From contig DASSUS010000017.1 of the NCBI GenBank assembly GCA_035706765.1, forward strand, positions 25,698-57,697: DNA of 32,000 bases. Reading direction: 5' to 3'. The DNA is from Gemmatimonadales bacterium. GTDB lineage: Bacteria > Gemmatimonadota > Gemmatimonadetes > Gemmatimonadales > GWC2-71-9. The notes beneath the pieces were generated by a model. The model saw only the letters and a program-made list of their open reading frames with translations, made no database searches and was not told the origin of the DNA. Of the stretch, positions 1-14,663 are shown piece after piece. The first letter of the stretch is position 1; every line of letters begins with the position of its first letter. The position numbers were made by a program, and so were the translations under genes.

Positions 1-258
1 GCGGCCGTCGGTCGCCGCCATGTAGCCGATCAGGCGGTTCAGCATCTCCCAGATGCCGTAGAGCGAGCGGCCCAACCCGCCGACGAGAATCGGCGTGATG
101 ACGAGCTGGACCGCGGCCTTGACGGTGTAATCGAGCAGCGACGCGACGGCGGTGAGCGAGGCCCGGCGCGTGAGCTGCGCGGGCCGGCGCGTCGGTTTTG
201 CCTGCTCGAGCGGTGTGGGCGTCTCGAGCGGATTCACCGCCGCGGCGTCAGTGGCCAT
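1..258 (-). CDS. Wzx-like polysaccharide/oligosaccharide flippase (MOP superfamily), N-terminal 86 codons; the gene continues beyond the left edge
   Basis: Not in the ORF track because there is no stop in the window. Hand translation from ATG at 258 gives MATDAAAVNPLETPTPLEQAKPTRRPAQLTRRASLTAVASLLDYTVKAAVQLVITPILVGGLGRSLYGIWEMLNRLIGYMAATDGR, open through position 1. A basic N-region is followed by a hydrophobic helix and an LGxxxYGxW pattern like Wzx/MOP N-termini. The ATG overlaps the upstream gene by 11 nt. GC3 is high. Confidence 0.5.
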   Translation of the reverse strand, partial: MATDAAAVNPLETPTPLEQAKPTRRPAQLTRRASLTAVASLLDYTVKAAVQLVITPILVGGLGRSLYGIWEMLNRLIGYMAATDGR

Positions 259-922
259 TGCGGCGCAGCTTCAGCCGCGACATCAGCTCCGCGGTGTTTT
301 CGTCCTGAAGCCCGGTCTCGGTACTGAGTGTGTCGATGTGGAGGTCGCCGACCTGCGCCAGCTCGCCGATCGTGCGCTCGAACGCGCGGCGGAACCCGGC
401 GGAAAAGCCGAAGATTTCGGCATCCGACATCGTCTTCACCATGTGCGGCTTGTCGCGTGTGCGGATGCGATTGGCGAGCGTGATGTCGGTCGCGTCGATG
501 AAGACGACGAGGTCGAGCATCGAGGCCCACTGGTCGATCACGCGCGCGCGCCAGCCGGCGGGCACACGATCGCCGTTGCGGTTGAAGAAGACGTCGAGCC
601 AGCTGAGCGCGAACACCGGCCCTTCGTCGAGCAGGATGACGCGGTGGCGCTGCGCTTCTTCCTCCACCACCTGGCGCAGCGCGCCGAGCCGCACCATTTG
701 CGCGATCTCGGCGGCCTTGAGGGGCGCGCGCTCCATCGTCGCGCCGAGTATCGTGGGCAACAGCGCCATCGCGCTGCGCATCAGCCGGCGCCTGGGCAGT
801 CCCCAGAGCGAAAGCCCGGACTTGATCGAGGCGTCGGCGTCGCTCGCGCCGCGTGCGAGCGTGGTTTTTCCGGCGCCGGCCGGTCCCACCAGCTCGACGA
901 TCACTGCGCGATTCCGGCTCAC
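248..922 (-). CDS. Small P-loop NTPase, kinase-like, family unknown
   Basis: This is the last 224 codons of track ORF 248..1597. GTG at 922 forms a GTGA overlap with the stop (919-921) of the upstream gene. It has Walker A VELVGPAGAGKTT, an acidic strand VILLDEGPVF, and VVFIDATD followed by the basic RIRTRDKPH. The upstream part of the track ORF is Arg/Ala-rich and overlaps the real frame of 919..2367. Confidence 0.7.
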   Translation of the reverse strand: MSRNRAVIVELVGPAGAGKTTLARGASDADASIKSGLSLWGLPRRRLMRSAMALLPTILGATMERAPLKAAEIAQMVRLGALRQVVEEEAQRHRVILLDEGPVFALSWLDVFFNRNGDRVPAGWRARVIDQWASMLDLVVFIDATDITLANRIRTRDKPHMVKTMSDAEIFGFSAGFRRAFERTIGELAQVGDLHIDTLSTETGLQDENTAELMSRLKLRRNGH

Positions 923-2367
923 AGCGTGCTCCAGAGCTCCGATTTGAGCTTCGCGACGACCTGCGGCAGCGGTTGGGCGGCGTCGATGATCCGCGCGCCG
1001 CTCCTGGTCCAATCGGTTTCGGCGGTCTTGCGGGCCCGCTCGCGGACGTAGTCGGCCGGCTCGGACGGCTTGCGGCTGACGGCGGTCTCGGGATCGAGGC
1101 GCAGCAGGAACAGCACATCGGGCGCGCTCATCCGCTCGTAGTAGCGTCGCTCCCACGCCCGCAGCCTGTTCGCGAACGGGGACTGCGCGTCGAGCGCGCG
1201 GCCCTGGAACTCGCTCGGCCCGGCGAGCGCCCACCCTTCGGGCAGGGGATAGCGCTCGCAGATCGCGATGCCGCCGCCGGCGGCAAAGCGGCGCGCGCGC
1301 CGGTAGAGGGCGTAGCGGTCGCGCGCGGTGCAGGCCATCCGCAGCAGCTCGCCGTGCGTGATGACGCGTGAGGAGGCCTGCGCGCGGCGCAGGATTTTCA
1401 GCACTCCGCCGACGACGAGCGTGGCGAGGCTGCGCGTGGGGCGGCCCAGGTGCACGTGCGTAGTGGCGAGCGAGGATTCGAGCCATGCCTCGAGCGCGTC
1501 GGCACAGGTCGATTTCCCGGAACCGTCGCCGCCGAGCAGCGCCACGACCGACCCTCCGCTCGCGAGTCGCTGACCCGTGGGACGGACGCGCCGCCACAGT
1601 CGTTCGGCGATTCCAAACACCGGCGGGCGCCAGGCGTGCGCCGAGAGTGCCTGCGCCAGCAGCGCGCGCGCGGCCAGGCGACGGCGCGGCAGCGCGCCCG
1701 GCTGCAGCGCATCGCGGCAGCGCGAAAACAGCGAGACGCTGACCTCGGGCAAGTGCCGGCGCAGCGCCGCGACGACGACGTCAGGTGAGACCTGCTCTTC
1801 GAGCCGGTCGATTTCGTTCAGGGCACCGATCAGCCACGCCGGAGTCCGGCGCCTGAGCGAGTCGCGCACCATGTGCCGCAGCGACAGACGCACGACGGCG
1901 ACGATCAGCTCGAGCTCGGGCGCGGCGGTCTTGAAGATCGCTCCGCTGCCGCCGCGATGCTGCGCGGACTCGAGCATCGCCTTCTCGAGCGGGAGGCGGT
2001 AATGGGTTCGCCAGGGCAGGCCCACCACGAGCCGCTGATAGACGTGGAGGTGAATCAACAGTCCGGTGCGCTCGTCGAGCCCGAAGAAATGCACGATCCC
2101 CGCGGCCTCTCGGCCGGCCGGTGGCAGCGCCAGCTTGAATCCCAGCCCGTTCACGACGTCCACAAAGTCCGCGTACGACGCGCTGTCGACCAGCAAATCG
2201 ATATCGCCGCGGCCGCTCTCCCAGCGCTCGCGCTTGCCGTGACCCTTCCACTGGCAATACGAGACGCCGCGATTCGCGAGCGTGGACCCGAGTCGCGAGA
2301 CGAGCGGGGCAGGGGAAACCGAACCGCTGCGCGGCGGAGCGGCGGTGGGGAGCAGGCTCAATGACAT
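919..2367 (-). CDS. Fusion protein: N-terminal pol-beta-type nucleotidyltransferase-like domain plus C-terminal thymidylate-kinase-like P-loop kinase domain
   Basis: 482-aa ORF. The N-terminal half has [20 protein letters not shown] (GxG ... DxD) then LLIHLHVY, resembling the uncharacterised NTP_transf_5-type family. The C-terminal half has Walker [16 protein letters not shown] (DRY-like) and [15 protein letters not shown], the layout of dTMP-kinase-like kinases. ATG 2367 overlaps the upstream stop by 10 nt. Confidence 0.75.
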
Positions 2368-3548
2368 GTTCCCGACCCCGTGTCGCTGAACGAGGCGCCG
2401 GCAACGGGGACGAACACCCAGTCGTAGCTGTCGATCTTCAGGGTCAGCTTCAGCACGCCGAACGCAGAGCCGCGCACTTCGCTGTTCGGGTGCACCGCAA
2501 CCGTGGGCAGGCTGGTCCCTTCTCCGCCACCGGTACCGACGATGAACTCGCGGATCCCCTTGGCGTCATCGACGGCGCCGCTCGGCGTCATGGGCTTCAG
2601 CCGCTCGTAATGGTGTGGCTGGGCGTTGAGGACGATCTCCACTCCCGCCGCGTACAGCGCGTCCCACAACGTCTTGCGCTCGCTGTTCGAAATGCCGCCC
2701 GCGGAATTGGACGATTGCCACATCGGCACGTGCCACATGGCGATGGTGCATTTCCGGCTGTTCGCGGCCAGGTCATCGACGAGCCACTGACGCTGTTCCG
2801 AGCCAGGACCGAATTGCACGAACGGCAGGTTGTCGTTGAGAACGATCACGTGCCATTGGCCGACGTCGTAGCTGTACCATCCTTTGCCCCGTTCGCCGAC
2901 CGCGCCCCCGAAGTAGTCGAACGCGCCATCGGCATTGCCCATGTTGTACTCATGGTTGCCGAGGGTGGGATGCGTCCGCGCCTTGAATTGCCCCCAGCTC
3001 GGCGAGTAGCAGTCGTCGTAGTCGGTGTCGGTGCCGTTGGGAAACGCGTTGTCGCCGAGCGTGAAGACGACGGCGTCCGGCTCGGCGGCGATCAGCGCCG
3101 CGGTGCGGTTGTCATTCGAAGAGCTGCAGTCGCCGATGTTACCGGCACCCATGAACACGACACTCGAGGCGGACGGCCGCGCCACCTCGGCGGTGGTCGC
3201 CGCGGGTGGGCTCTTCGCCCCGCGCGCGTCGGTCACCGTCAGCGCGACGTTGTAGTCACCGTCCTGCGCGTAGGTGTGCGAAGGCTTCATGTCGGTCGAG
3301 CTCGCGCCATCGCCGAACGTCCAGCTGAACGTCAAGGCATCGCCGTCCGGATCTGATGAGGCGCTGCCGTCGAAGTTCACCGTGCCCGTGGACGAGCTAT
3401 ACGGGCCACCCACGACGGCCACCGGCGGGCTGTTGGGCGGCGGCGGTGGCGGCGACACCGGCGGTGGGGGAGGCGGTGGATTGACCGTCTCACGGCATGC
3501 GACACCCAGAGCGATGAGCAGGAACACGAATGCTGGACGCGACGTCAC
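2358..3548 (-). CDS. Secreted (lipobox-like Cys) PKD-domain purple-acid-phosphatase-like metallophosphoesterase with partly substituted metal-ligand motifs (paralogue 1)
   Basis: GTG 3548 forms GTGA with the stop of the upstream paralogue and has GGGAGA 5 nt upstream; the track start TTG 3566 is the alternative. Signal peptide [18 protein letters not shown] is followed by a Pro tract and a PKD signature ([24 protein letters not shown]...[14 protein letters not shown]). The motifs read GNIG, GDNAF, GNHE, WHVP and AQPHH. The tail is [15 protein letters not shown]...DTGSGTCH. Confidence 0.85.
3423..3479 (-). repeat. Proline-codon (CCN) low-complexity tract, G-rich on the plus strand
   Basis: Encodes [19 protein letters not shown] immediately after the signal-peptide Cys of paralogue 1. 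Confidence 0.9.
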
Positions 3549-4723
3549 TGCGGTCTCCCGTGACAAGTGCCAGAGCCGGAATCGGTGAATGTGCCGCCGG
3601 CCGAGCGGATGAAACGCCAGTCATAGCCGGCGTTTTTGAGCGTGAGTTTCAGAACGCCCCAGGTGTCGTTGTTGCGCACTTCACTGTTCGAGCCCTCGGG
3701 AATCGGCCCGAACGCGTACAGTCCTTCGCCGCCGCCCGTGCCCACGACGATCTGAGGGATGCCGAAAGCGTTATCGAGCGTGCCGTCGGGCTTCTGGGGC
3801 GCGAAGCGTTGATACGAGTGATCGTGACCGTTGAGCACGAGATCCACGCCGTACTCGTACAGCGCATTCCAGATCGCCGTCACTTCGGGGCGGATCGGAG
3901 CGCGGTCCTTGATTGTTGAGAACCGCGGATGGTGCCACACGGCGAGCGTGCATTGCTCGGTGTGCGCGGCGAGCTCGGCGCGGATCCATTGCTCCTGCGG
4001 CGAGCCGGCTTCGTAATTCACGGGGCGGTCGGTGCCGGTATTGATCACCAGCACGAACCAGCTCCCGGCCGTGAAGCTGTAATAGCCTTTCGTGGGGTCG
4101 CCGGCGGCGGCGCCGAAATAGCCGTAGTAGCCGGCCGCACCCGAGGTGTTGTAGTCGTGATTTCCGGCGACGGGGCGTGTGCGGTACTTCTGCCGGCCCC
4201 ACGCCGGGTCGTAGCAGTTCGCGTACTCCTCGGGCGTGCCGTCGAGATAGGCGTTGTCGCCGAGCGGCATGACGATGCCCGGGATGGTATCGAGCGTCTG
4301 GCCCGTGGCGTCGTCGGAAGTCCGAAGGCAGTCGCCGATGTCGCCCGCGGCGAGGATGACGGGATCGCCGGTCGTGAGGTTGAGCGATGCCGAGCCGTTG
4401 GCGTCGCGCGCGTTCGTCACGCTGACGTCGACGCGGTAGTTCCCGTTGTTCGTGTAGGTGTGCGTCGCGGGAAGCGCGCCCTGCGTGCCGACCGATCCGG
4501 TGGAGCTGTTGCCGTCGCCCCAGTTGATCGAGTAGCTCCAGGGGCCCTGGTTGCTCGAGTCGCTGAACGTCACCGGGAGGGCGAACGTCGCGGCGAGCGG
4601 AACCGAGGGGAGCGTGCCGAGCGTGACATGGAGGTTGCCGCGGGGCTCGTTGGGGCCGCCGCAGGTCACGGTGACCACCAATAGAAAAACTCCGCACATG
4701 CGGACAAGGGTGCGTGCGATCAT
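3545..4723 (-). CDS. Secreted PKD-like-domain purple-acid-phosphatase-type metallophosphoesterase with all catalytic motifs intact (paralogue 2)
   Basis: ATG 4723 forms an ATGA overlap with the stop of the upstream mini-lipoprotein; the 60 upstream codons of track ORF 3545..4903 are rejected. Signal peptide [21 protein letters not shown] is followed by INWGDG...[15 protein letters not shown]. All five PAP motifs are present ([25 protein letters not shown]). The tail is [15 protein letters not shown]...DSGSGTCH. Confidence 0.88.
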
Positions 4724-4959
4724 AGTGATGCGATGGGGCCGGACTGCCAGGGGTAGTCGTGATTGTCGCTCGTGTCCTTCGGCGTCTTTTGCGGACCGGC
4801 CTTGGGAGCGGGAGCGGGTTCTTCGGGTGGCACCGTCTGCGGTTGGACCGCGGGTGAAGGTGCCGCAACGGGACGCTCCGGCTGGCGCGATTCGCGGCCG
4901 CATCCGAGCAACAGCGCTTGCAGCGCTACTGCCAGCATACGACCGTCGAATCTCGCCAT
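4720..4959 (-). CDS. 79-aa proline-rich mini-lipoprotein
   Basis: ATG 4959 is preceded by AGGAGA with a 7-nt spacer. The signal peptide has a good lipobox (MLAVALQALLLGC). The mature part is Pro/Glu/Lys-rich (PERPVAAPSPAVQPQTVPPEEPAPAPKAGPQKTPK). The stop overlaps the next start as ATGA (4720-4723). Confidence 0.65.
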   Translation of the reverse strand: MARFDGRMLAVALQALLLGCGRESRQPERPVAAPSPAVQPQTVPPEEPAPAPKAGPQKTPKDTSDNHDYPWQSGPIASL

Positions 4960-4983
4960 CGGAGCGTCTCCTATGCCGCGTGC

Positions 4984-6303
4984 TTAGTGGCAGGTCGCCG
5001 AACCAGAATCGGTCGGGCCACCGGGAGTCGCGTTGACGAACTCCCAGTCGTAGCTGTTGTCCTTCATCGTGAGCTTCAACACACCCCAGCTGTCGACGAT
5101 CTGCGCTTCACGCAGCGCTGGAGTGGCAGGGCCGCCGGGGTTGTCGAACGACCGGCCGCCGGTTCCGACGATGAACTGACGGAAGCCCGTCGGGTCGGGG
5201 CTCGCGGAACGAACGTCGGCGGGTGCAAACCGGGCGTACAGCTTGTCCTTCGCGCTGATCAGCAGATCGACACCGTACTGCTTCATGGTGCCGGCCATGC
5301 GAACCATGTTGAAGTTCTTGCCTTGCTCACCCAGGCTCGTGGTGTAGAAGCGCCGCTCCCACGAAATCACGGCGATGCACGGCTTCGTGTTCGCCGCGAG
5401 ATCTGTCGCAAGCCATTCAGCCTGTTCGGAAGGAACCTGAATTTCCTGTACGCCCGGTGTCGCGGGATCGCCGTCGGTCACGCCGAACGTCGTCGCCGCG
5501 CCATGCTCCCAATCGGACGTGTTCAGGAAGACGATGTGCCAGCTGCCCTTGTCGAACGAGAACCACCCCTTGTGAGCCGGGCCGGTCCGATCGCCGAGGT
5601 AGCCATATACACCATCAGGTCCGCGGTCGCTGCCGAAGTCACCGGTCCCAATCGCATACCAGGTCCGCGACCGGAACGCATCCCACCCCTTGCCCACGAA
5701 GCAGCTCTGGAACGTGGTTCCCGCGGTCATGTCGGCCAGATTGTTGCCGACAGTGAACGCGATCGCGCTCGTGTCGTTTTTCAGGATGTTATCGACCAGT
5801 GCCGCAGTGGCCTTCGGGCCAGCATCGCTGTTGCACGTCGAGATCTCGCCGGCGCCCACCATCGTGAATCCAGGAACTGTGGTCACACCCGTCGTCGTCG
5901 CCGTCGCGGTCGCGAACGCCGAGCTGGTCGTCGCGTCGAATGCCGAGACGCGATAGGTGTACTGCGTCGACGCCGCGAGCCCGACCGAGTCGACATACGT
6001 CGCGGCGTTCGCGGCCAGGTTCGCGCCGATCTGCGCGAACGTCGTGCACCCGGCGCCGCTGCACCGCTCGACCTTGTAGCCGGTCTCGGTGGTCGCGTTG
6101 TCGGTCCACGCCAGATCGACCCGCGTCTGCGACATCGGCGTCGCGGTCAATCCCGTCGGCGCGGCCAGCGTCGGCGGCGGCGGCGGTGGGGGCGGGGGTG
6201 GGTTGGTCACGGTGTCTTCTTTACAGGCGCCGAAGGCGCCGATCGTGCCGGCGGCGGCGAGCACCAGCGCGGCTCGAACCATGGAGCGGTTAGTGAACCT
6301 CAT
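4984..6303 (-). CDS. Secreted FN3-domain purple-acid-phosphatase-like protein with all metal-ligand motifs degenerate (paralogue 3, predicted pseudoenzyme)
   Basis: ATG 6303 is preceded by AAGGAGAG with a 7-nt spacer. Signal peptide MRFTNRSMVRAALVLAAAGTIGAFGAC is followed by 10 Pro and an FN3-like segment (PTGLTATPMSQTRVDLAWTDNATTETGYKVER...YTYRVSAF). The phosphoesterase core aligns to paralogues 1 and 2 but reads GEIS, GNNLA, GTGD, SWER and AKDK. The tail is VLKLTMKDNSYDWEF...DSGSATCH. Confidence 0.85.
   Translation of the reverse strand: MRFTNRSMVRAALVLAAAGTIGAFGACKEDTVTNPPPPPPPPPPTLAAPTGLTATPMSQTRVDLAWTDNATTETGYKVERCSGAGCTTFAQIGANLAANAATYVDSVGLAASTQYTYRVSAFDATTSSAFATATATTTGVTTVPGFTMVGAGEISTCNSDAGPKATAALVDNILKNDTSAIAFTVGNNLADMTAGTTFQSCFVGKGWDAFRSRTWYAIGTGDFGSDRGPDGVYGYLGDRTGPAHKGWFSFDKGSWHIVFLNTSDWEHGAATTFGVTDGDPATPGVQEIQVPSEQAEWLATDLAANTKPCIAVISWERRFYTTSLGEQGKNFNMVRMAGTMKQYGVDLLISAKDKLYARFAPADVRSASPDPTGFRQFIVGTGGRSFDNPGGPATPALREAQIVDSWGVLKLTMKDNSYDWEFVNATPGGPTDSGSATCH
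6172..6201 (-). repeat. Run of 10 proline codons, G-rich on the plus strand
   Basis: CCA CCC CCG CCC CCA CCG CCG CCG CCG CCG, read on the minus strand directly after CKEDTVTN of paralogue 3. Confidence 0.9.
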
Positions 6304-6372
6304 ACTTCGTCTCTCCTTGAGTGAAAACGTGAATCGCTTGCAAGCACAGGCCGGTGCCGGTACGAGCGGAGA

Positions 6373-6396
6373 CCGTGCCGCCGGCAGTCGGCACGG
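6373..6396 (-). other. GC-rich stem-loop (8-bp perfect stem, 8-nt loop) in the intergenic gap; possible internal terminator or RNA processing/stability element
   Basis: CCGTGCCG (6373-6380) and CGGCACGG (6389-6396) are exact reverse complements. One further pair is possible after a mismatch. No U tract follows on the minus-strand transcript. Confidence 0.3.
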
Positions 6397-6418
6397 CCGC
6401 CCAGAATCCTGAACAGCG

Positions 6419-6496
6419 TCAGTCGCACGAGAGCACCGCGAGTACGGCGCCGAGAATCACGAGGGCGCGCAGCAACAGCATCATGGCAGGTCTCAC
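6419..6496 (-). CDS. Candidate 25-codon hydrophobic micro-ORF (signal-peptide-like, ends Cys-Asp)
   Basis: The sequence GTG AGA CCT GCC ATG ATG CTG ... TGC GAC TGA encodes (M)RPAMMLLLRALVILGAVLAVLSCD. AAGGAG (6502-6507, the last codons of the upstream gene) lies 5 nt upstream of the GTG. Alternative ATG starts are at 6484 and 6481. It is too short to judge by composition. Confidence 0.25.
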   Translation of the reverse strand: MRPAMMLLLRALVILGAVLAVLSCD

Positions 6497-6498
6497 AG

Positions 6499-8775
6499 TC
6501 ACTCCTTGGCGCTGCGAAGCGTCAGCGGCGGTTCCTTGGTGCGGCGGACAGTGTGCCCCAGTGTTTCGATCCCGCGGCGGAGCGTCGCGCCGATCAACGG
6601 CAACGGGTCGTCCCATGCGAAGCCGCTCTTGGCTTCGCACTGAATGACCCACGGGACCCATTGGGCAAAGGACATGCCTGACGCGCGCGCGGCGGAGAGG
6701 TCTTTCCACGGCTTGCACCAGCGGTAGCCGGCGCGCGCGGGCACCATCATGGGGCGTGGCGCCCCGATCAAATCGCCATAAACGAGTGCGGGGAGGTTCA
6801 CGCCTGCGACGGCGCCGAGGTGATGCCAAAGGTTGAAACGCGGATTCACCTCGAGCAGCCGCAGCCGTCCGTCGAGGTCGCGCTTGAAATCGAACTTCGC
6901 CACGCCGCGGAATTGCAGCCGTTTCACCAACGCCCGGCCAAGCGCCAACACGTCCTGCGCATCACTGGTCTCGAGGGCGGTGCTGTCGCCGTAAGCGGGC
7001 GGCAGGGTGCGAATTTTCTTTCCCGCGAACTCGCCGGCGATCGCGCCGCGCTCGTCCACGTAGGCGTGATAGCTCTCGATGCTCGTCTCGGCGCCGGGAA
7101 TCAGCTCCTGCGCGAGCAGCGCGAGATTCGCGGCCATGATGCGCGGCCATAGCTCACGCAGCTCGCGCATGGACTGCACCGAGATCGCCTTGCCCGCGCT
7201 CGCGATCGGTTCCCAGCGCGCCGGAATCCGCACCAGCGGTTTCAGAATCAACGGGAACGGGATCGGGAAATCGTCGCCCGGCTCCGGGTCGCCCGGGTTG
7301 ATCACCCGCGCGGCGGGCACCGGCAAATCGAGTTTGGCGGCGAGCGCCTGAAACCGGGATTTGTCCACGAGCTGCTCGACCAGCTCGGCGTCGGGCACGA
7401 CGAACCGGAACGCCTCGCGCAGCCGTTCCCGATGCCGCGACACCATCAGCAGCGTCCGGTCTTCCTGATAGAACAGGCACGGCGGCTCGGGCTGCGCCTG
7501 ACCGAAGCGGACCAGCGACTCGACCAGCGGCTCCTGGCTGTCCCACGCGTTATGCCACGGGAATACGGCGCGGGTGTGGCGCGAGTAGCGCACCGGCGCG
7601 CCCGGAGGCGCGAGCACCGTGGAGGGAATGCGCGCGCACCCGAGCGCGCGCACGAGGTCGATGTCGCCGAGCACCACGGCCGGGGGGCGGGTGGGGTGCG
7701 CGGGACGTCCCGCCCGCCCGATGAACCCGGTGGCCTGACGCGTGACGAGCGAGGCTCGGCCGCGCAGCGACTGCTGCCACCCGTAGACCCGTTTCGCGAC
7801 CCTGCGCGCCTTCATGAGCCACGGCCGGCGCCCGCGCAGCCAGCGCACTTTCCGCCGATCCGGCTCGGCGCCGAACTTGATCTTGAACTCGCCGCCGCCC
7901 ATGAAGTCGAACGTGGTGCAGCCGAGCTCGATCGCCCGCTGCATCACCGTCCAGGTCATGAGCTCGGTGGGGCGATACCAGCGGTAATGCTGGCGGTGCG
8001 CCCACATCCACAGCAGCAGCTCGGTCCCTTCGACGTAGAAGATCCCCGTGGCGATGTTCACGCGCCCGCCCGGGAGATAGACCGAGATCGCGATGAGGTT
8101 TCCGCTCTGCTTCAGCTTCCGGAAAAACTCGAGCACGCGCTGCTTCCCGAACGGGACCGCGAATCCGCCGCGCCGATAGACTTCCTTCAGCTGGGCGTAG
8201 TGCTCGTCGACGAAGCTCTCATCGTCCTCGAACTTCGTGATGAGCCCGAGCCGCTGCGCGCGCTTCACGTTGCGGCGCGCGCTCATCTTCAGCTGCTTGA
8301 AGGTGCGGGCCTCGTCGTTGGGGTAGAGCGGCGCGCGGAAGGTGAAGACCGGCTCGTCCTCGAAGCCGGCGGCGCGCATCCCCTCCGGATCGAGCCCGAG
8401 GTGCAGCATCTCGATGTGATCGACGTCGTGCTCGCGCTCGAGGTACGACACGACCGACGACGCGAACGCGCCGGTGTCGAACCGGGCGGGATCGTAGGCG
8501 GGACCGAGACTCACGGTCTGCCACCCGGCGAGCGGCGAGCCGAACAGCTTCCAGCGGCCGACGGTGACGAGCAGGCCGGGGAAGCACCCTACGATTCCGG
8601 TCTCGTCCTCGAGCAGCCGATAGAGCGGCTTGCCGCAATTGCAGCTCGCGAGGGTATCGATCCACGCACGCGTGTGCGGCAGGCGGTAGTTGGGAAAGCG
8701 CCGCACGATCGCGTCCCAATTCGCGAGCTCCGTCGCGCTCGCTTCGCGCACGCGCATCGTTGCTGAAGGAGTCAT
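6499..8775 (-). CDS. Fusion protein: N-terminal FemAB-like/GNAT-fold acyl(aminoacyl)transferase domain plus C-terminal ATP-grasp carboxylate-amine ligase domain
   Basis: 758-aa ORF. ATG 8775 has GAGGAC 5 nt upstream and a 1-nt overlap (TGATG) with the upstream stop. Residues ~1-340 show FemAB/CelD-like features (WMWAHRQHYRWYRPTELMTWTVMQRAIELGCTTFDFMGGGEFKIKFGAEP). A basic linker follows. Residues ~370-758 look like a COG3919-style ATP-grasp (DKSRFQALAAKLDLPVP, PLILKP, LAQELIPG, VAKFDFKRDLDGRLRLLEVNPRF). Confidence 0.8.
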   Translation of the reverse strand: MTPSATMRVREASATELANWDAIVRRFPNYRLPHTRAWIDTLASCNCGKPLYRLLEDETGIVGCFPGLLVTVGRWKLFGSPLAGWQTVSLGPAYDPARFDTGAFASSVVSYLEREHDVDHIEMLHLGLDPEGMRAAGFEDEPVFTFRAPLYPNDEARTFKQLKMSARRNVKRAQRLGLITKFEDDESFVDEHYAQLKEVYRRGGFAVPFGKQRVLEFFRKLKQSGNLIAISVYLPGGRVNIATGIFYVEGTELLLWMWAHRQHYRWYRPTELMTWTVMQRAIELGCTTFDFMGGGEFKIKFGAEPDRRKVRWLRGRRPWLMKARRVAKRVYGWQQSLRGRASLVTRQATGFIGRAGRPAHPTRPPAVVLGDIDLVRALGCARIPSTVLAPPGAPVRYSRHTRAVFPWHNAWDSQEPLVESLVRFGQAQPEPPCLFYQEDRTLLMVSRHRERLREAFRFVVPDAELVEQLVDKSRFQALAAKLDLPVPAARVINPGDPEPGDDFPIPFPLILKPLVRIPARWEPIASAGKAISVQSMRELRELWPRIMAANLALLAQELIPGAETSIESYHAYVDERGAIAGEFAGKKIRTLPPAYGDSTALETSDAQDVLALGRALVKRLQFRGVAKFDFKRDLDGRLRLLEVNPRFNLWHHLGAVAGVNLPALVYGDLIGAPRPMMVPARAGYRWCKPWKDLSAARASGMSFAQWVPWVIQCEAKSGFAWDDPLPLIGATLRRGIETLGHTVRRTKEPPLTLRSAKE

Positions 8776-9443
8776 CAGCAGTCCTCAGCGAGCAACCGGC
8801 GTGCCGCGGGCATCTCGGGAGGTTGCTTGAACTTTCGGCGGCCGAGCGCCACGGCGCCGATCGCCAGCGCGGTGCGCGCGATGATCGCGAAGTCCCGGCG
8901 CAGCGACGCGCGCCGGATGTAGACCCGATCGAGCGCGAGCTTCGTCTTGAGCAGCTTGTCGACGTAATGCGTCTCGGGATCGTCGGGGTGCAGCAGCGTC
9001 TCGGCCGATGTGAACTGGTACAGGCTCCCCGGGCTCGCGAGCCCGGGTCGCACGCCGAGCGTTTCGAGATCGGGGGACGAGTAATGCTCGCGCACGATCG
9101 CCGGGTCTTCGGGCCGGGGTCCCACGATCGCCATGTCGCCCCTGAGGACGTTGAAGAGCTGCGGCAGCTCGTCGATCTTCGTCTTGCGCAGGATCCTGCC
9201 GATCGTCGAGATCCGATCGTCCCGATGGCCCGTGATGCGCGGACCTCCGGAGCCTCCATCGACCTTCATCGTCCGCAGTTTCCACATCGTGAATTCGCGC
9301 CCGAGATAGCCGACGCGCCGCGCCCGGTAGAACACTGGACCGGGATCGGTCAGCTTGATGCCGAGTGCGGCGAGGCCGATGATGGGCGCGGTGAGGACGA
9401 GTGCCGCCCCCGCGCAGACGATGTCAAACAGGCGTTTCACCAT
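8775..9443 (-). CDS. Small monotopic phosphoglycosyltransferase (bacterial sugar transferase family, PglC/WbaP-C-terminal type); primes on undecaprenyl phosphate
   Basis: 222 aa. It starts MVKRLFDIVCAGAALVLTAPIIGLAAL (re-entrant helix) and carries PVFYRARRVG, WKLRTM and DELPQLFNVLRGDMAIVGPRP. Confidence 0.9.
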   Translation of the reverse strand: MVKRLFDIVCAGAALVLTAPIIGLAALGIKLTDPGPVFYRARRVGYLGREFTMWKLRTMKVDGGSGGPRITGHRDDRISTIGRILRKTKIDELPQLFNVLRGDMAIVGPRPEDPAIVREHYSSPDLETLGVRPGLASPGSLYQFTSAETLLHPDDPETHYVDKLLKTKLALDRVYIRRASLRRDFAIIARTALAIGAVALGRRKFKQPPEMPAARRLLAEDC

Positions 9444-10101
9444 GATGGAGAGTTCGGCGGACGGTCATGAAGACTTCCGCGGCCTCGAGGCACTGCTGGT
9501 TGCCCCAGGCCAGGGCCCGGTGGCGCAGCGCGTCGAGCGAGCGCGGATGGGGATAGGGACGGAGCTCGCTGGTGTAGCACGCCATCGCCGCGAGCTTGAT
9601 CTCGAGCGTGGCCGAGATGTCGACCCAGGTATCGGCGGTGAAGGTGCGGGGGTACGCCCACTCGGTGCTGCTCGCGGTGTCGAACGCGTACACGGCGCGG
9701 ACCCAGCAGGCGGTCGGCCGGGTCGCGACGAGCGCGGCCTGGAACAGCAAATGGTGATCGCGGTTGATGTCGCCGCCCCACTGGCAGTAGACGACGTGGG
9801 GTTGGACTTCCTTCACGATCGTATCCAGCGGATTGATGATCTCGGTGAGCGGCATCGTGTCGAGCCGCTGATCGGGAAAGCCGAGCGGGCGCACGTCGCG
9901 CACGCCGAGGGTTGCCGCGGCCTTGCGGATGTGCTCGGGTTGGCCGACGCCCTGCTGGCCATAGCGCAGCGACTCGCCCTCGCACACGATGATCGACGTC
10001 ACCTCGTCGCCGGCCCTGGTGTGCAGCGCGACCGTGCCGCCACACCCGAGCAATTCGTCGTCGGGATGCGCGGCAATGACGAGCACTCTGCGCTTACTCA
10101 T
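9424..10101 (-). CDS. PIG-L/LmbE family de-N-acetylase
   Basis: MSKRRVLVIAAHPDDELLGCGGT plus DINRDHH. ATG 10101 has GGAAGGGG 6 nt upstream and overlaps the upstream stop by 8 nt; the track start 10122 is less likely. Confidence 0.85.
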   Translation of the reverse strand: MSKRRVLVIAAHPDDELLGCGGTVALHTRAGDEVTSIIVCEGESLRYGQQGVGQPEHIRKAAATLGVRDVRPLGFPDQRLDTMPLTEIINPLDTIVKEVQPHVVYCQWGGDINRDHHLLFQAALVATRPTACWVRAVYAFDTASSTEWAYPRTFTADTWVDISATLEIKLAAMACYTSELRPYPHPRSLDALRHRALAWGNQQCLEAAEVFMTVRRTLHHGETPV

Positions 10102-11059
10102 GGCATTCCCCTTCCTGCCCATTCCAGCGCTTGCCGGTCCACGGCTGCTCGCTGAGCGCCTGGCCGCGCAGCCGCGTACCGGCTTCGTCTTCCACTTCGA
10201 GCAGCACGACGGCGCCGCTGCCGCACGCCACGAGCTGACCGCAGGCCGACTGCGCCGGACTCACCACCGGTCCCAGCACTTCGCCGGGCTCGCCCACCGG
10301 GCCGCGGTCGGGGGGCAGCGCCGCTTCCCAGATCCACCACTGTTTGCCGTCGAGGGAGCTGAAGGCGCCGGGGTAGGGACGCGTGAGCGCGCGGACGAAG
10401 TCGTAGACCATCCGGGCGGGGCAGGTCCAGGTGATGCGTCCGTCGGCGGGGCGGCGCCGGCGCAGCACCGGCTCGTCGCTGCGTTGCTGCGGGCGGCCGG
10501 GACGCTCGCCCGCGAGCAGCTTCGGCAGCAGCTCGAGCAGCATCTCGCGGTTCGTGGCGGCCACCTGCGCGTACAACGTGGCGCAGGTGTCGTAGGGCCC
10601 GACGGGGAACGAGCGCTGCGCGATGATGTCGCCTTCGTCCACGCCTTCGGCGAGCCACATCAGCGTGTTGCCGCTCTCGCGCTCGCCGCGGATGATGGTC
10701 CAGTTGATCGGCGCGGAGCCGCGATTGTGCGGGAGCAGCGACGCGTGCGCGCCGATCAAGCCCAGCCGCGCCAGCTTCATGACCGGCGGCCGCGCGATCT
10801 GATGCCAGCCGATCACGAAGATCACGTCGGGCGCGAGGTCCGCGAGGATCTGCATCGCCTCGGGCTCGTTGATCCCCGCGATGTAGTGCAGCGGAATCCC
10901 GTACTGGCTGCACACCGGCGCGTAGTCCACGCCGCCGGAGCGCTTGGCGGCGAGCTCGGGCTTCAGCGTCAGCACGGCCGCGATCGGCGCACCGGCGGCA
11001 AGCAACGCCTGCAACGCCGCCAGTCCCTCGGCATGAAACCCGACCCACGCGAATTTCAC
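10094..11059 (-). CDS. Formyltransferase of the FMT/ArnA-N-terminal type; by context a sugar N-formyltransferase
   Basis: GTG 11059 forms GTGA with the upstream stop. It has HASLLPHNRGSAPINW (the HxSLLPxxRG motif), a catalytic-Asp region MWLAEGVDEGDII, and an FMT-like C-terminal domain. It sits next to the DegT aminotransferase. Confidence 0.8.
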   Translation of the reverse strand: MKFAWVGFHAEGLAALQALLAAGAPIAAVLTLKPELAAKRSGGVDYAPVCSQYGIPLHYIAGINEPEAMQILADLAPDVIFVIGWHQIARPPVMKLARLGLIGAHASLLPHNRGSAPINWTIIRGERESGNTLMWLAEGVDEGDIIAQRSFPVGPYDTCATLYAQVAATNREMLLELLPKLLAGERPGRPQQRSDEPVLRRRRPADGRITWTCPARMVYDFVRALTRPYPGAFSSLDGKQWWIWEAALPPDRGPVGEPGEVLGPVVSPAQSACGQLVACGSGAVVLLEVEDEAGTRLRGQALSEQPWTGKRWNGQEGECHE

Positions 11060-12240
11060 CGGCGGTAGGTCTGGACCACGTCCAGCACCGCCTCGATGAC
11101 GTCACCGACATCCTGATCGGTGAGTCCGGGGTGCAACGGAAGACTCAGCATCCGCTCGAAGTTCGTGAACGCCACCGGGTAGTCGCTCGCGATGTACCCG
11201 TATTTCTTCCGGTAAAAGGGGTGGACGTGAATCGGGATGAAATGCACCGACGTCCCGATGTTGCGCTTCGTGAGCTCGTCGATGAACTGATCGCGGCCGA
11301 TGCGCAGCAGCTGGGGACGGATGCGCAGGACGAAGAGGTGCCACGCGTGCTCGACGTACGGGCGCTGCACCGGGGGCTCGAGCGCTTCTTCGGCGCCGAA
11401 CGCCTCCAGGTACGCCTTTACGATCTGCAGGCGCCGCTGATGGAACCGCTCCTGCTTGCGCAGCTGCCACAGTCCGATCGCGGACGCTACGTCGGTGAGG
11501 TTGTACTTGAAGCCCGGGGCCACCACTTCGTAGCGCCAGCTGCCGCCCTGGTCGTAGCGCTTCCAGGCGTCCCGGCTCATCCCGTGCAGCGCCATGATGC
11601 GGGCGCGCTCCAGGAATTCCGGCGGGGCCGTGAGCATTCCGCCTTCTGCCGTCGTGAGGTTCTTGGTGGCGTAGAAGCTGAAGGCCACCGGATTCGGGCT
11701 GGACCCGATCGGCCGGCCGCGGAAGCTCGCGGGCAGCGCGTGCGCCGCGTCTTCGATCAGCGTGAGATTGTGCGCCCGCGCGAGCTCGTCGAGCGCGTCC
11801 CGCTCCACCGGATGGCCGGTGTAATGGACCGGGAGCAAGGCCCGCGTGCGCGGCGTAATCGCCGCTTCGACCTTTTTCGGATCGATGTTCAAGGTGTCCG
11901 GCTCGACGTCGACCAGTACCGGGCGCGCGCCGACGTGCTCGATCACATTCGCCGTCGCCGTGAACGTCATCGGCGTCGTAATGACCTCATCGCCGTGCTC
12001 GAGGTCGAGGCACGCCAGCGCGACGTGCATCGCCGCCGTACACGAGTTCAGCGCCAGCGCTCCTGGAGCGCGCACGAAGGCCGTGAACTCCTCTTCGAAG
12101 CGGCGCGTCTTGGGACCCGTCGTGATCCAGGGTGAGCGAAGCGTGTCCACTACTTCGCGGATCTCTTCCTCTTCCACGAGCGGGGGATTGAACGGCAGGA
12201 AGTCGCGGCGCGTGCTGACGCGCGAGATCGTGTCGGTCAT
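11056..12240 (-). CDS. DegT/DnrJ/EryC1/StrS-family PLP-dependent sugar aminotransferase (PglE/ArnB/WbpE-like)
   Basis: 394 aa with SPWITTGPKTRRFEEEF and the PLP-lysine region FSFYATKNLTTAEGG. ATG 12240 forms ATGA with the upstream stop. Confidence 0.9.
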   Translation of the reverse strand: MTDTISRVSTRRDFLPFNPPLVEEEEIREVVDTLRSPWITTGPKTRRFEEEFTAFVRAPGALALNSCTAAMHVALACLDLEHGDEVITTPMTFTATANVIEHVGARPVLVDVEPDTLNIDPKKVEAAITPRTRALLPVHYTGHPVERDALDELARAHNLTLIEDAAHALPASFRGRPIGSSPNPVAFSFYATKNLTTAEGGMLTAPPEFLERARIMALHGMSRDAWKRYDQGGSWRYEVVAPGFKYNLTDVASAIGLWQLRKQERFHQRRLQIVKAYLEAFGAEEALEPPVQRPYVEHAWHLFVLRIRPQLLRIGRDQFIDELTKRNIGTSVHFIPIHVHPFYRKKYGYIASDYPVAFTNFERMLSLPLHPGLTDQDVGDVIEAVLDVVQTYRR

Positions 12241-14408
12241 TGTACGGTGCCTCCGCCCGCGACGGCCCCATCGGGCGGGATCGTGGGCGTGTTGGGAGCG
12301 AGCAGGGGATCGGGCGCGAGCGTCGGGGCCGGAGTCGGCGCCGGAGGGGTCAGGTCGTTCATCAGCCCGGCGCGCGAGCGGCTGAGCCGCCGGCGCGAGG
12401 CCCCGTTGCCGTTGGTGTGGCGAGCGCGGTGGTTCACCCCGTTGCCGTTCTTGCGCGCGCCATTGCCGGAGTGTGCCACCAGCTCGAGCCGCTCCGGCTG
12501 GTATTCGGTGACGATGGCGGAGAGTGCACGCACCATCGAGCGCTCATCGCCCTGGCCGGTGACGGAGATCAGCGAGCGCAGCTGCCGCGCCAGGGTGGCG
12601 CCGCCCGCTCCATTGCCCGCGACGACGCGGATCTTCTCGATCGACGTCTGCGCGAGCGTTTCGTTCGGCGCGACGAGCTCCTCTTCCAGCTTTTCGCCCG
12701 GCCTGAGGCCGGTGAACACGATCTGGACGTCGTGGTAGGGCACGAGCCCCGACAGGCGGATCAGCTGCTCGGCGAGCTCCAGGATGCGCACCTGCGTTCC
12801 CATCTCGAGTACCGCGATCCGGCCCGCCGCTTCCGGCAGCGCGGCCGCCTCGAGCACGAGCTGCGCGGCCTCCGGAATCGTCATCAGGAAGCGCTTCATC
12901 TCGGGATGCGTGACGGTGACCGGGCCGCCGGCCGCGATCTGTTTCTTGAACAGCGGAACGACGCTGCCGTCCGAGCCGAGCACGTTCCCGAACCGCACCA
13001 CGCGGAAATCGGTGTTCGAGGCGCGCAGCGACGGCAGCTCGCGGACGATGTGCTCCGCGACGCGCTTCGTCGCGCCGAGAATGCTCGACGGATTGACGGC
13101 CTTGTCGGTGGAGATCAGGACGAACTTCCGCGTACCGACGCGCGCCGCCGACTGCGCCAGCCGCAGCGTGCCGACGACGTTGTTCCAGACGCCCTCGATC
13201 ATGTTCCACTCGAGCATCGGCACGTGCTTGTAGGCGGCGGCGTGAAACACGCAGTCGGGCCGATAGGTCTCGAACATCCGGTCGAGCCGGGCGGCGTTCG
13301 TGACGCTCGCGAGGACCGGGACGACGTCGATCGCCGGATGCGCCTCGGAGATCTCGTGACAAATGAAGAACAGCGGGCTCTCCGCGCGGTCGAGCAGCAG
13401 CAGGCGCCGCGGGTGGAACCGCGCGATCTGCCGCACGAGCTCGGAGCCGATCGATCCGCCGGCGCCGGTCACGAGGATCACCTTGCCCGCGAGCTCGGGC
13501 GCGACGTCCTTGAGCTCGAGCTGCACGGGGTCGCGCCCCAGCAGGTCCTCGACCTGGACGTCGCGCACGTGATTGATCTGCGGCTCGTCCGGGGAGAGCA
13601 GGTCGACCTGGGGCGGCAGGATCTTGACCGCGACGCCGGTCTCGGCCGCGCGGGCCACGAGCTTGCGCACCTGTTCGGGGGTGGCCGACGGTGTGGCGAT
13701 CACGATCTGCTGCGCCTGGTGCATGGCGACGAAGCGCCGCAGCTCTTCCGAGCCGCCCAGCACGGAGACGCCGTGCAGCGTGCGGCCATGCTTCGCGACA
13801 TCGTCGTCGACGATGCCGACGACGTTCAGCGGGTGCCGCGGATCATGCTGGAGCTGGCGCAGCAGGCGCTCGCCGGCGACGCCGGCGCCGATGATGATCG
13901 CGGGGCGCCCGCGGCGCCGCTGCCGGCGCGCGAACGGCTCTTCGCGGATCCAGCGCAGCAAGCCGCGTTGATCGCGGCTCGGTCGGCGGAACGGCTCTTC
14001 CTTGATCCAGCGCGCCAGAAACCGAATCCCACCCGCCAGCATGATGAGAATGAACCAGTCCAGGATCGGGACGCCGGCCGGCATCGTGCCGACGCGGCCG
14101 AGGAACAGCAGCAGGCCGATGAACGCGAGCGAGCTGAGCGTCGTCGCGGCGATGAGCTGCCGCAGGTCGCGGACGCCGACGAGGTGCCAGTAACCGCGGA
14201 ACAGCCCGAAGCGATGGAACAGCGCGAGCCGCAGCACGAGGAGATAGGGAAGCGTTTCGGCGTAGGTGCGCAGCTGCTCGGGAGGGATCTGAAAATCGAA
14301 GCGCAACGCATACGCGGCGAAATAGGCGAACGAGACGAGCGCGAGATGTCCGGCAACCGAGACATAGCGCCGATAGGGACGCAGACGTGACAAGGCTTCC
14401 ATCAGCAT
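12237..14408 (-). CDS. Membrane-anchored CapD/PglF/WbpM-type nucleotide-sugar 4,6-dehydratase with an unusual ~78-aa low-complexity C-terminal tail
   Basis: The start is placed at ATG 14408 (MLMEALSRLRPYRRY...). The 19 upstream codons of the track ORF have poor GC3. There are four N-terminal hydrophobic helices and two Rossmann segments (IIIGAGVAGERL; VLVTGAGGSIGSEL). AAAYKHVPMLE and STDKAVNPSSILGATKRVAE are present. Confidence 0.88.
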   Translation of the reverse strand: MLMEALSRLRPYRRYVSVAGHLALVSFAYFAAYALRFDFQIPPEQLRTYAETLPYLLVLRLALFHRFGLFRGYWHLVGVRDLRQLIAATTLSSLAFIGLLLFLGRVGTMPAGVPILDWFILIMLAGGIRFLARWIKEEPFRRPSRDQRGLLRWIREEPFARRQRRRGRPAIIIGAGVAGERLLRQLQHDPRHPLNVVGIVDDDVAKHGRTLHGVSVLGGSEELRRFVAMHQAQQIVIATPSATPEQVRKLVARAAETGVAVKILPPQVDLLSPDEPQINHVRDVQVEDLLGRDPVQLELKDVAPELAGKVILVTGAGGSIGSELVRQIARFHPRRLLLLDRAESPLFFICHEISEAHPAIDVVPVLASVTNAARLDRMFETYRPDCVFHAAAYKHVPMLEWNMIEGVWNNVVGTLRLAQSAARVGTRKFVLISTDKAVNPSSILGATKRVAEHIVRELPSLRASNTDFRVVRFGNVLGSDGSVVPLFKKQIAAGGPVTVTHPEMKRFLMTIPEAAQLVLEAAALPEAAGRIAVLEMGTQVRILELAEQLIRLSGLVPYHDVQIVFTGLRPGEKLEEELVAPNETLAQTSIEKIRVVAGNGAGGATLARQLRSLISVTGQGDERSMVRALSAIVTEYQPERLELVAHSGNGARKNGNGVNHRARHTNGNGASRRRLSRSRAGLMNDLTPPAPTPAPTLAPDPLLAPNTPTIPPDGAVAGGGTVQ
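13933..14014 (-). repeat. In-frame 57-nt-period direct repeat inside the dehydratase gene
   Basis: gaacggctcttcgcggatccagcgc (13933-13957) and gaacggctcttccttgatccagcgc (13990-14014) match at 22 of 25 positions. They encode RWIREEPF and RWIKEEPF in the linker after the TM region. Confidence 0.8.
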
Positions 14409-14663
14409 GGACAAGACGACTCCGCATTGGGCTGTGCCGCCCCGTAATGCACCTTCCATGCTCAACGCGGTCGTGCTTGTGCCCGGCGCCGAACGCCTCA
14501 GGACTCAGCGCGGCGCGCCCGGCAGTTGCTACCGAACAGGGCGCAAGGCCGTGAGCGCTGTGGGGTTAACTGCGTGACGGCGCACGGCACCGAGCTTGCG
14601 TGGCGGAGCTAGACGTCTAGGCGTCGGAACGTCTAGCAGTTCTTGCCCAAGGAGCCACGCGCG
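14409..14663. promoter_or_regulatory. Divergent intergenic control region between the two polysaccharide operons
   Basis: This is the largest non-coding gap in the window and is flanked by outward-facing gene starts (14408 minus, 14664 plus). I could not assign confident -35/-10 hexamers. Confidence 0.6.
14609..14636. promoter_or_regulatory. Candidate operator: 12-bp perfect palindrome CTAGACGTCTAG plus a repeated half-site ACGTCTAG 16 bp downstream
   Basis: CTAGACGTCTAG (14609-14620) is its own reverse complement. ACGTCTAG recurs at 14629-14636. That puts three CTAG tetramers in 28 bp of GC-rich DNA, 28-55 nt upstream of the ATG at 14664. Confidence 0.4.

Follow-up and report, generated by a model that had tools for sequence, protein, structure and literature searches.

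The window analysed here is a stretch of 32,000 nucleotides from a Gemmatimonadales bacterium (assembly GCA_035706765.1, contig DASSUS010000017.1, positions 25,698 to 57,697). In its left part, three minus-strand genes resembling those of purple acid phosphatases (PAPs) lie inside a polysaccharide gene cluster. An earlier reading made without database searches (the sequence-only reading) described them as a tandem array of secreted PAP-like paralogues. The three genes, called P3, P2 and P1 in their gene order, and the genes coupled to them are listed below with window coordinates and the evidence for each.

4984-6303, minus strand: P3, with a lipoprotein leader, a run of 10 prolines, a fibronectin type III (FN3) module and a PAP-fold domain (Pfam fn3; AlphaFold2 and Foldseek)
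4720-4959, minus strand: sLP, a small lipoprotein of 79 amino acids (aa) (open reading frame and orthologues)
3545-4723, minus strand: P2, with a lipoprotein leader, a PKD module and a canonical PAP-type metallophosphoesterase domain (Pfam; phmmer against the PDB)
2358-3548, minus strand: P1, with a lipoprotein leader, a proline-rich tether, a PKD module and a PAP-type domain with altered ligands (Pfam)
919-2367, minus strand: NTase-kinase, an NTP_transf_5-like nucleotidyltransferase (NTase) with a thymidylate-kinase-like P-loop domain (sub-cutoff Pfam matches, alignment)
248-922, minus strand: a P-loop protein of 224 aa, nucleoside/nucleotide-kinase-like (weak AAA_16, AAA_18 and AAA_33 matches)

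All three PAP-like open reading frames (ORFs) were present as proposed, and the NCBI call for P2 was identical (392 aa, 100% identity and coverage). Their paralogy was borne out by BLAST, with pairwise identities of 30-41% and E-values from 2e-34 to 2e-84: P2 and P1 shared 41% identity (E 2e-84), P3 and P2 31% (E 2e-34), and P3 and P1 30% (E 1e-38). Also the beta-sandwich modules were those proposed, fn3 in P3 and PKD in P2 and P1; none was of the PF16656 type. In Pfam, P2 matched PKD_4 (1.5e-10) and Metallophos (4e-10) and P1 likewise PKD_4 (1.3e-23) and Metallophos (3e-7), both passing the PF00149 cutoff of 21.5 bits with 40.9 and 31.4 bits, respectively. Metallophos_C (PF14008) was matched by P2 alone, at 6e-4 and 20.8 bits against a cutoff of 23. 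The only Pfam match of P3 was fn3 (E 1e-6); the Metallophos profile was not matched by P3, and NCBIfam placed none of the three proteins in a family.

Of the PAP-type fold ascribed to the whole trio, the part concerning P1 and P2 was thus upheld by profile, whereas P3 was placed by its structure model. The AlphaFold2 model of P3 (predicted local distance difference test, pLDDT, 89.9) had plant PAPs as its best Foldseek matches (3zk4 with E 3e-16, 1kbp and 1xzw), the PAP matches ranging from E 3e-16 to 1e-10. It also matched mammalian PAPs (TM-score about 0.7, target-normalised) and PhoD (2yeq). P3 was aligned to the plant PAPs over its full length, in a different domain orientation (root-mean-square deviation about 13 Å), and the identity to PDB PAPs in the structural alignments was 12-17%. 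For P2, phmmer retrieved wheat, pig, rat, human and kidney-bean PAPs from the PDB. The proline runs were confirmed (10 in P3, 7+6+2 in P1). The nearly identical C-terminal endings were recovered in P1 (DTGSGTCH) and P3 (DSGSATCH), but P2 runs on with GRPQ after TCH.

The metal-ligand columns were read after aligning the cores on five metallophosphoesterase motifs (GDxG, GDxxY, GNH(D/E), xxxH and GHxH). The seven ligand positions correspond to D135, D164, Y167, N201, H286, H323 and H325 of kidney-bean PAP. The motifs and ligand residues of the three proteins are as follows.

P2: GDIGD, GDNAY, GNHD, WHHP and GHDH; ligands D-D-Y-N-H-H-H, seven of seven
P1: GNIGD, GDNAF, GNHE, WHVP and AQPH; ligands N-D-F-N-H-Q-H, four of seven (D to N, Y to F, H to Q)
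P3: GEIST, GNNLA, GTGD, SWER and AKDK; ligands E-N-A-T-E-K-K, none of seven

A working PAP core common to all three genes, as the sequence-only reading had assumed, was therefore not found, the full ligand set being present in P2 alone. Judged by these residues, at most one, perhaps two, of the proteins could be phosphoesterases; P2 would be a PAP-type enzyme by sequence definition, and P1 and P3 would be PAP-fold paralogues and not PAPs.

The three ligand states recurred beyond the window. Among the 339 homologues retrieved, counting single-domain proteins, D-D-Y-N-H-H-H was present in 82, N-D-F-N-H-Q-H in 65, and E-N-A-N-E-K-K with its close variants in about 90; in the best 120 matches of the P3 search, E-N-x-x-E-K-K-like signatures predominated. 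Altogether 13 independent P3-type loci were recovered: the window, L001 and L004 (by exact-protein look-up; L002 and L003 are apparently the L001 locus from other samples), L009-L011 (GTDB representative genomes) and L089-L095 (metagenomes of the Joint Genome Institute, JGI). For the window's own P3 and P2 the exact-sequence look-up gave no record, and their context was read from these orthologous loci. The same states in the same gene order were found in all five syntenic loci read (L001, L004, L009, L010 and L011). There, every P2 orthologue kept all seven ligands and the His of GNH(D/E). P1 orthologues had N-D-F-N-H-Q-H in four loci and N-D-F-N-H-H-H in L004, and P3 orthologues had 0-1 of the seven canonical residues, with the P3 ORF intact in syntenic loci down to 44% identity. 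By their sequences, the ligand differences of P1 and P3 are conserved discrete classes and not random decay.

From sequence and model, P3 has the PAP fold but is a pseudoenzyme, and the residues that stand in place of its ligands (Glu, Asn, Lys-Lys) are conserved in turn. Since its fold is kept, every ligand is lost and the orthologous family is conserved, P3 probably binds and does not hydrolyse. P1, with a less anionic ligand set, may either bind different metals or be inactive; since its Fe(III) site has lost both Asp and tyrosinate, the metal site of P1 is probably altered and possibly divalent-only.

The conserved ligand-poor states of P3 (0/7) and P1 (4/7) would also be expected if all members, P2 included, acted mainly as lectin-like or scaffold lipoproteins, anchoring or organising an anionic polymer or the export machinery at the envelope. 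Vps29 and the B-subunits of DNA polymerases, inactive subunits of the metallophosphoesterase fold, would be parallels. The FN3 and PKD modules with their long poly-Pro spacers and the tethered peptide-like sLP fit such a non-enzymatic role. So does the retention of Gram-negative capsular polysaccharide (CPS), which, like the release of Gram-positive Wzy-type polymer as exopolysaccharide (EPS), is left unexplained in a review (PMC12220298). The conservation of the P2 ligands and motif His in every orthologue, however, argues that catalysis is selected for, and a role without any enzyme was considered very improbable.

The leaders were found to end in Cys, as had been claimed. In P3, P2, P1 and sLP, a basic n-region and a hydrophobic core are followed by a lipobox, which in the window ends in ..AFGAC, ..VTVTC, ..LGVAC and LLLGC, respectively. 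The putative lipobox Cys was invariant in 9/9 orthologues, with variants ..VTC/AAC in P2, ..VAC/LGC/LAC in P1, ..FGAC in P3 and LLGC in sLP. Also the four Cys columns noted earlier were invariant in the alignment of the three paralogues. Of 397 homologous domains, 371 had both members of the first Cys pair, 21 had neither and 5 had one without the other, which is the pattern expected of a disulfide. We infer that P1, P2, P3 and sLP are tethered outside the cytoplasm. A role of the trio in dephosphorylating Wzc, analogous to that of Wzb or CpsB, was rejected, since the lipoprotein leaders and disulfide-type Cys pairs would place the trio and the Wzc kinase domain on opposite sides of the membrane, out of each other's reach.

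The small lipoprotein sLP is a fourth conserved lipoprotein of the module, omitted from the sequence-only reading. Its gene lies between P3 and P2. In the protein, which had no match in Pfam, a disordered linker rich in Pro is followed by a conserved motif at the C-terminus, (Y/F)PWQS(G/S)PIAxL. Orthologues were found in L001, L003, L009, L010, L011 and L089-L095, and a frameshifted one in L004. A possible role of sLP is that of a tethered peptide which binds or inhibits one of the PAP-fold proteins. The overlap proposed between P3 and P2 does not exist, because sLP intervenes; it is the sLP stop that forms an ATGA with the P2 start at 4720-4723. The other two junctions, read directly, agreed with the proposal: P2 and P1 overlap by a GTGA, and the P1 stop and the NTase-kinase start overlap by the 10 nucleotides ATGTCATTGA at 2358-2367. 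A further GTGA joins the NTase-kinase and P-loop genes. The 10-nucleotide overlap was kept in L001, L004, L009, L010 and L011 and is dual-coding: the same nucleotides give the conserved ..C-H-stop of P1 and the Met-Ser-Leu with which the NTase-kinase begins.

The order P3, sLP, P2, P1, NTase-kinase was kept in 13/13 loci, as far as each contig runs, with P3 identities from 69% down to 44%. In the window the module belongs to one minus-strand gene chain from 14465 to the left window edge, which opens with precursor and initiation genes (PglF-like to PglC-type), and the Wzc-like and SLBB genes, for export, diverge on the plus strand from the other end of the chain. The remaining genes and features of this part of the window are the following.

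12237-14465, minus strand: PglF-like 4,6-dehydratase (Pfam)
11056-12240, minus strand: DegT aminotransferase (Pfam)
10094-11059, minus strand: formyltransferase (Pfam)
9424-10122, minus strand: PIG-L deacetylase (Pfam)
8775-9443, minus strand: PglC-type phosphoglycosyl transferase, Bac_transf (Pfam)
6499-8775, minus strand: FemAB/GNAT-like and ATP-grasp fusion, 758 aa (Pfam Acetyltransf_6, FemAB, ATPgrasp_Ter)
6419-6499, minus strand: relic of a small lipoprotein gene (intergenic alignment and ORFs)
1-258, minus strand: N-terminal part of a polytopic membrane protein, cut off by the window edge (translation and hydropathy)
14643-17069, plus strand: Wzc-like polysaccharide co-polymerase/bacterial tyrosine kinase, Wzz and AAA_31 (Pfam)
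17066-17791, plus strand: SLBB-domain Wza-like protein (Pfam)

In eight long loci the module stands between the genes for PglF, DegT, formyltransferase, PIG-L, PglC and the FemAB/ATP-grasp fusion on one side and the P-loop gene on the other, and the order between PglF and the P-loop gene is complete, except that the shorter L009 begins at DegT. In L001 and L004 the gene calls continue with a membrane protein of 523 and 536 aa, respectively, a Wzy_C gene and a glycosyltransferase (GT) of family GT4. A more distant Gemmatimonadales cluster, L050, has three PAP-like genes with the same neighbours in a slightly different arrangement. The matches of P2, P1 and P3 often share identical longest-contig sizes (e.g. 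7928, 6051, 9493, 12390, 15728 and 48870), which indirectly suggests that the three genes are co-located on many more contigs. Since synteny with glycan genes was conserved in every P3-type locus recovered, the proposal that the trio belong integrally to the operon is upheld. In scans for sigma-70-like promoters and for terminators nothing scored above chance, which is no evidence either way on independent transcription, and an Rfam scan gave no match.

A Wzx/Wzy-dependent cluster is recognised by a phosphoglycosyl transferase, a MOP-type flippase, a Wzy polymerase, Wzc and Wza, and the locus fits this pattern if the membrane protein at the window edge is the flippase: the window contains Bac_transf, Wzc-like and Wza-like genes, and Wzy_C, together with GT4, lies beyond it in L001 and L004. 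The 523-aa orthologue of the membrane protein at the window edge has about 10 hydrophobic segments by hydropathy and no match in Pfam was found for the edge protein, which is presumed to be a Wzx-type flippase. The FemAB/ATP-grasp fusion had TIGR03019 (PEP-CTERM/XrtA-associated FemAB) as its best NCBIfam match, below cutoff. Orthologous clusters also hold CapK-like and AsnB-like genes. Together, the FemAB/ATP-grasp, CapK-like and AsnB-like genes suggest an aminoacylated or amidated amino-sugar polymer.

The NTase-kinase carries a GxGDIDLLV motif. Profile and PDB searches gave sub-threshold NTP_transf_5, thymidylate-kinase and P-loop matches only; among eight orthologues, NTP_transf_5 was matched in 8/8 and Thymidylate_kin in 7/8, all below the gathering cutoffs. 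Orthologues of the P-loop gene (224-226 aa) were present in all long syntenic loci, the one in L004 with a faint AAA_33 match. L001/L002 have an additional P-loop gene of 216 aa (faint AAA_18/AAA_33), and L004 has a second NTP_transf_5 gene.

The wider family is large, with at least 7,988 proteins at E<=1e-5 among the 8,000 candidates scored. A search of the representative library with full-length P3 drew giant multi-FN3 proteins, the full-length relatives in the top 150 being P0125 and P0197. Altogether 59 homologues unite two or three PAP-like domains in a natural fusion, and in most of them a degenerate domain is joined to one of canonical or P1 type. As the linker between the domains corresponds to the N-terminus of a P1-like protein, rich in Pro and with a PKD module, these are likely to be fusions of adjacent genes. 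Giant ORFs, or arrays, holding between 2 and 12 PAP-like domains were observed in L005/L006 (4852-10031), L031 (1632-9108), L042 (560-5002) and L143 (737-16529). Their hosts are Gemmatimonadota and Acidobacteriota, each domain ends in ..DSGSGTCH, and in some a homologue of the NTase-kinase follows, as it does at the end of the long arrays of L031 and L143. The ligand sets within arrays are mixed, e.g. N-D-Y-D-H-H-A, D-D-Y-N-H-H-H, D-D-F-N-H-Q-H and N-D-L-H-H-H-R.

Some homologues outside the syntenic loci have neighbours related to glycans. In L040, from an Actinomycetes metagenome-assembled genome (MAG), the PAP-like gene clusters with Bac_transf, GT, DegT, Wzy_C, Polysacc_synt_2, NTP_transf_5 and flippase genes, and the same cluster encodes a separate protein with five PKD domains and CBM96 (L040:3065-5878). 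In L084 and L074 (Acidimicrobiales and Caldilineaceae MAGs) the PAP-like domain is fused to CBM96 (L084:7784-10894, also with Big_9/cadherin repeats, and L074:8261-10876) near Bac_transf, NTP_transf_5 and sulfotransferase genes. These fusions and clusters hint at glycan substrates. PAP-like genes also adjoin Wzc and Wza in L098 and L105. A link of the whole family to glycans was nevertheless rejected, because the Pfam census of immediate neighbours of distant P2-like homologues was heterogeneous. In L012-L088 it included five LigT/2H phosphoesterases, four ATP-sulfurylases with PUA_2 and four CotH kinases, which suggests other, non-glycan roles in nucleotide or sulfur metabolism for the wider family.

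The size of the family, which lies mostly outside glycan clusters, speaks for ordinary phosphate scavenging, in which the trio would be secreted acid phosphatases merely residing in, or co-expressed with, a glycan operon. The JGI annotation of some members is 'acid phosphatase type 7', one paralogue stands near a faint match to a phosphate-selective porin, and phytases are known among the PAP-like enzymes of soil metagenomes (PMC6355987). Such a role is hard to reconcile with the strictly conserved position and overlaps in 13/13 loci, kept while P3 identity falls to 44-49%, and with the two of three copies that have no canonical ligand set and are yet maintained as intact orthologues. Furthermore, no pst, pho or Pho-type genes were found by Pfam within the 32-kb window (Pho boxes are undefined for Gemmatimonadota), and some homologues are fused to CBM96. 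Scavenging was judged decidedly unlikely.

The fixed place of the trio in the glycan operon suggests an undescribed extracytoplasmic phosphate-handling step. In the reading favoured here, held tentatively and with a confidence not quite reaching even, the module is conserved and dedicated to a Wzx/Wzy/Wzc/Wza heteropolysaccharide pathway, and P2 hydrolyses a phosphate group on the flipped unit or polymer. The NTase-kinase and the P-loop protein would install a phosphate or nucleotidyl group in the cytoplasm, and the lipid-linked repeat unit would be flipped carrying it. The four translationally coupled lipoproteins P3, sLP, P2 and P1 would be tethered on the extracytoplasmic side of the envelope. 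P2, presumably a binuclear-metal PAP-type hydrolase, would be the catalytic subunit and would remove the phosphate ester or nucleotidyl-phosphate from the lipid-linked unit or the nascent polymer after flipping. The former metal pocket of P3 would most plausibly bind an anionic or phosphorylated group of the glycan without cleaving it, and P1 would work with different metals or be inactive. Installation of the phosphate group by the co-translated NTase-kinase and P-loop proteins is itself a tentative part of this scheme, falling somewhat short of an even chance; it is favoured because this pairing is the most conserved feature and is met again in L031 and L143, where no PglC gene is visible.

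Several points weigh against this scheme. The phosphate on the polymer and the action of the NTase-kinase on a glycan are assumptions, and the family assignments of the NTase-kinase are all below cutoff. P1 may still be active, which makes the claim of a single catalytic subunit uncertain. The longer paralogues P0072 and P0054 occur in unrelated contexts, one of them about 2 kb from a faint Porin_O_P match, and the 117 ORFs flanking distant homologues in many phyla were heterogeneous. All hosts are uncultured MAGs. The AlphaFold2 model of P0072, a natural two-domain fusion, had a pLDDT of 86 and a predicted template modelling score (pTM) of 0.47, with no confident packing between the domains; a stable complex of P1, P2 and P3 would be attractive but is unsupported by such modelling. 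Also a bolder version, in which P2, guided by the binding pseudoenzymes and sLP, would either take off a protecting or export group (phosphate or nucleotidyl) placed on the lipid-linked repeat unit by the NTase-kinase, or release the finished polymer from undecaprenyl diphosphate, in an unrecognised periplasmic step of the Wzx/Wzy pathway, was considered quite improbable.

The same enzyme could instead act at the lipid carrier. P2 would then cut the diphosphate at the reducing end, freeing the finished polymer from undecaprenyl diphosphate (Und-PP) for export through Wzc/Wza, or dephosphorylate the released Und-PP, and P1 and P3 would hold the polymer or the carrier. Structurally, the family is matched best by lupin PPD1 (3zk4), a PAP that cleaves the pyrophosphate and phosphodiester bonds of diphosphonucleotides. 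Moreover, PAP-like genes recur beside PglC-type and Wzc/Wza genes in several lineages, and the ligand-complete P2 has the shortest tether and would thus sit nearest the membrane. The known Und-PP phosphatases, on the other hand, are integral membrane proteins (BacA, PAP2), and most Wzx/Wzy clusters are without a gene of this kind. A carrier step also fails to explain why the genes for the NTase-kinase and the P-loop protein are so consistently coupled to the module, and it does not explain the arrays of L031 and L143, which have an NTase-kinase but no visible PglC gene. It would meet the unexplained release of Gram-positive Wzy-type polymer (PMC12220298). On balance the carrier step was considered unlikely.

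Plant-type high-molecular-weight PAPs (the ACP7 group: 1kbp from kidney bean, 1xzw from sweet potato, the wheat phytase 6gja and 3zk4 from lupin) combine a beta-sandwich, a metallophosphoesterase core and a C-terminal beta region, an arrangement that the trio resembles, with a sandwich of another type and a PAP C-terminal profile matched by P2 alone and below cutoff. All seven ligands of these enzymes, the GDxxY Tyr among them, and their five motifs are found in P2. Unlike them, the trio are bacterial lipoproteins with PKD or FN3 modules, poly-Pro tethers, two predicted family-specific disulfide pairs and the ending ..TCH, fixed with graded ligand loss inside a polysaccharide operon. Catalytically dead proteins of the metallophosphoesterase fold include Vps29 of the retromer and the B-subunits of DNA polymerases alpha, delta and epsilon, which like P3 have kept the fold without catalysis. 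In contrast to these, P3 is by its sequence extracytoplasmic, lipid-anchored and bacterial, and it is encoded beside a ligand-complete paralogue. The secreted PhoD-type scavenging metallophosphatases have a related fold (2yeq), and paralogues of the trio outside the cluster may share their role; the trio differs from them in being locked inside a glycan operon with two of its three members devoid of the catalytic ligand set. The logic proposed here, a cytoplasmic kinase and an extracytoplasmic phosphatase encoded together, has export-coupled precedents in streptomycin-6-phosphate with the extracellular phosphatase StrK and in the periplasmic lipid A phosphatases LpxE and LpxF. The enzyme families differ from that of the trio, and phosphorylation of the present glycan is a proposal.

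The sequence-only reading had placed phosphoesterases outside the textbook schemes of glycan assembly. [quoted passage not shown] Like the trio in the present proposal, these phosphoesterases of EPS/CPS clusters influence polymer output. Wzb, CpsB and PssZ are cytoplasmic protein phosphatases acting on kinases or regulators, whereas the trio has lipoprotein leaders. A literature search worded for PAP-like proteins in glycan clusters, Gemmatimonadota EPS loci and metallophosphoesterase pseudoenzymes found no paper on them, and no report was found in which PAP-type lipoproteins outside the cytoplasm are a conserved part of a Wzx/Wzy operon, nor one of such a graded trio.

The module is a concrete candidate for a new processing step in the finishing, release or retention of Wzy-type polymers (PMC12220298). 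Should P2 cut the polymer from Und-PP, the release step that is missing for secreted Wzy-type polymers would be at hand. In this locus, moreover, nature has kept an enzyme beside two paralogues whose active sites are lost in stable, graded states (7, 4 and 0 of 7 ligands), a clean case for work on the origin of pseudoenzymes and on what they bind. In soil Gemmatimonadales, the labels 'acid phosphatase type 7' and 'PKD domain-containing protein' hide three functionally different classes, and counting all of them as phosphatases would overestimate the phosphorus-cycling potential of a metagenome.

Some smaller features of the locus were recorded. Of the relic gene that follows the FemAB/ATP-grasp gene at 6419-6499 (minus strand), only the leader survives in the window (..MRPAMMLLLRALVILGAVLAVLSCD*), and the region 6304-6499 (minus strand) also contains an out-of-frame remnant, ..PTAGGTVSARTGTGLCL. 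The orthologues are of 27 aa in L009 and L010, and intact with 73-100 aa in L001 (8253-8474), L011 (9746-9967) and L004 (8190-8492). The intact ones end like the PAP paralogues, in ..GGTFSDSGTGTCH, or ..AAGGTFSDSGTGTCH in L004; the gene may encode a mini-protein or be the remains of a fourth PAP paralogue.

In L010, P3 and sLP are separated by an insertion of about 2.6 kb, lower in GC (51-60%) than its flanks (65-70%). The insertion encodes on the opposite strand a 607-aa lipoprotein (L010:11499-13322, minus strand) with a weak right-handed beta-helix match, possibly a glycan depolymerase gained by transfer. Farther out in the window are alpha-glucan genes and then housekeeping genes such as recA, recX and alaS. 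The former are an alpha-amylase-family gene and a glycogen-debranching-type (GDE_N/GDE_C) gene following the Wza-like gene at 17799-21712 (plus strand). Their maximal ORFs overlap (17799-19667 and 19289-21712), so the GDE gene probably starts later than its longest ORF.

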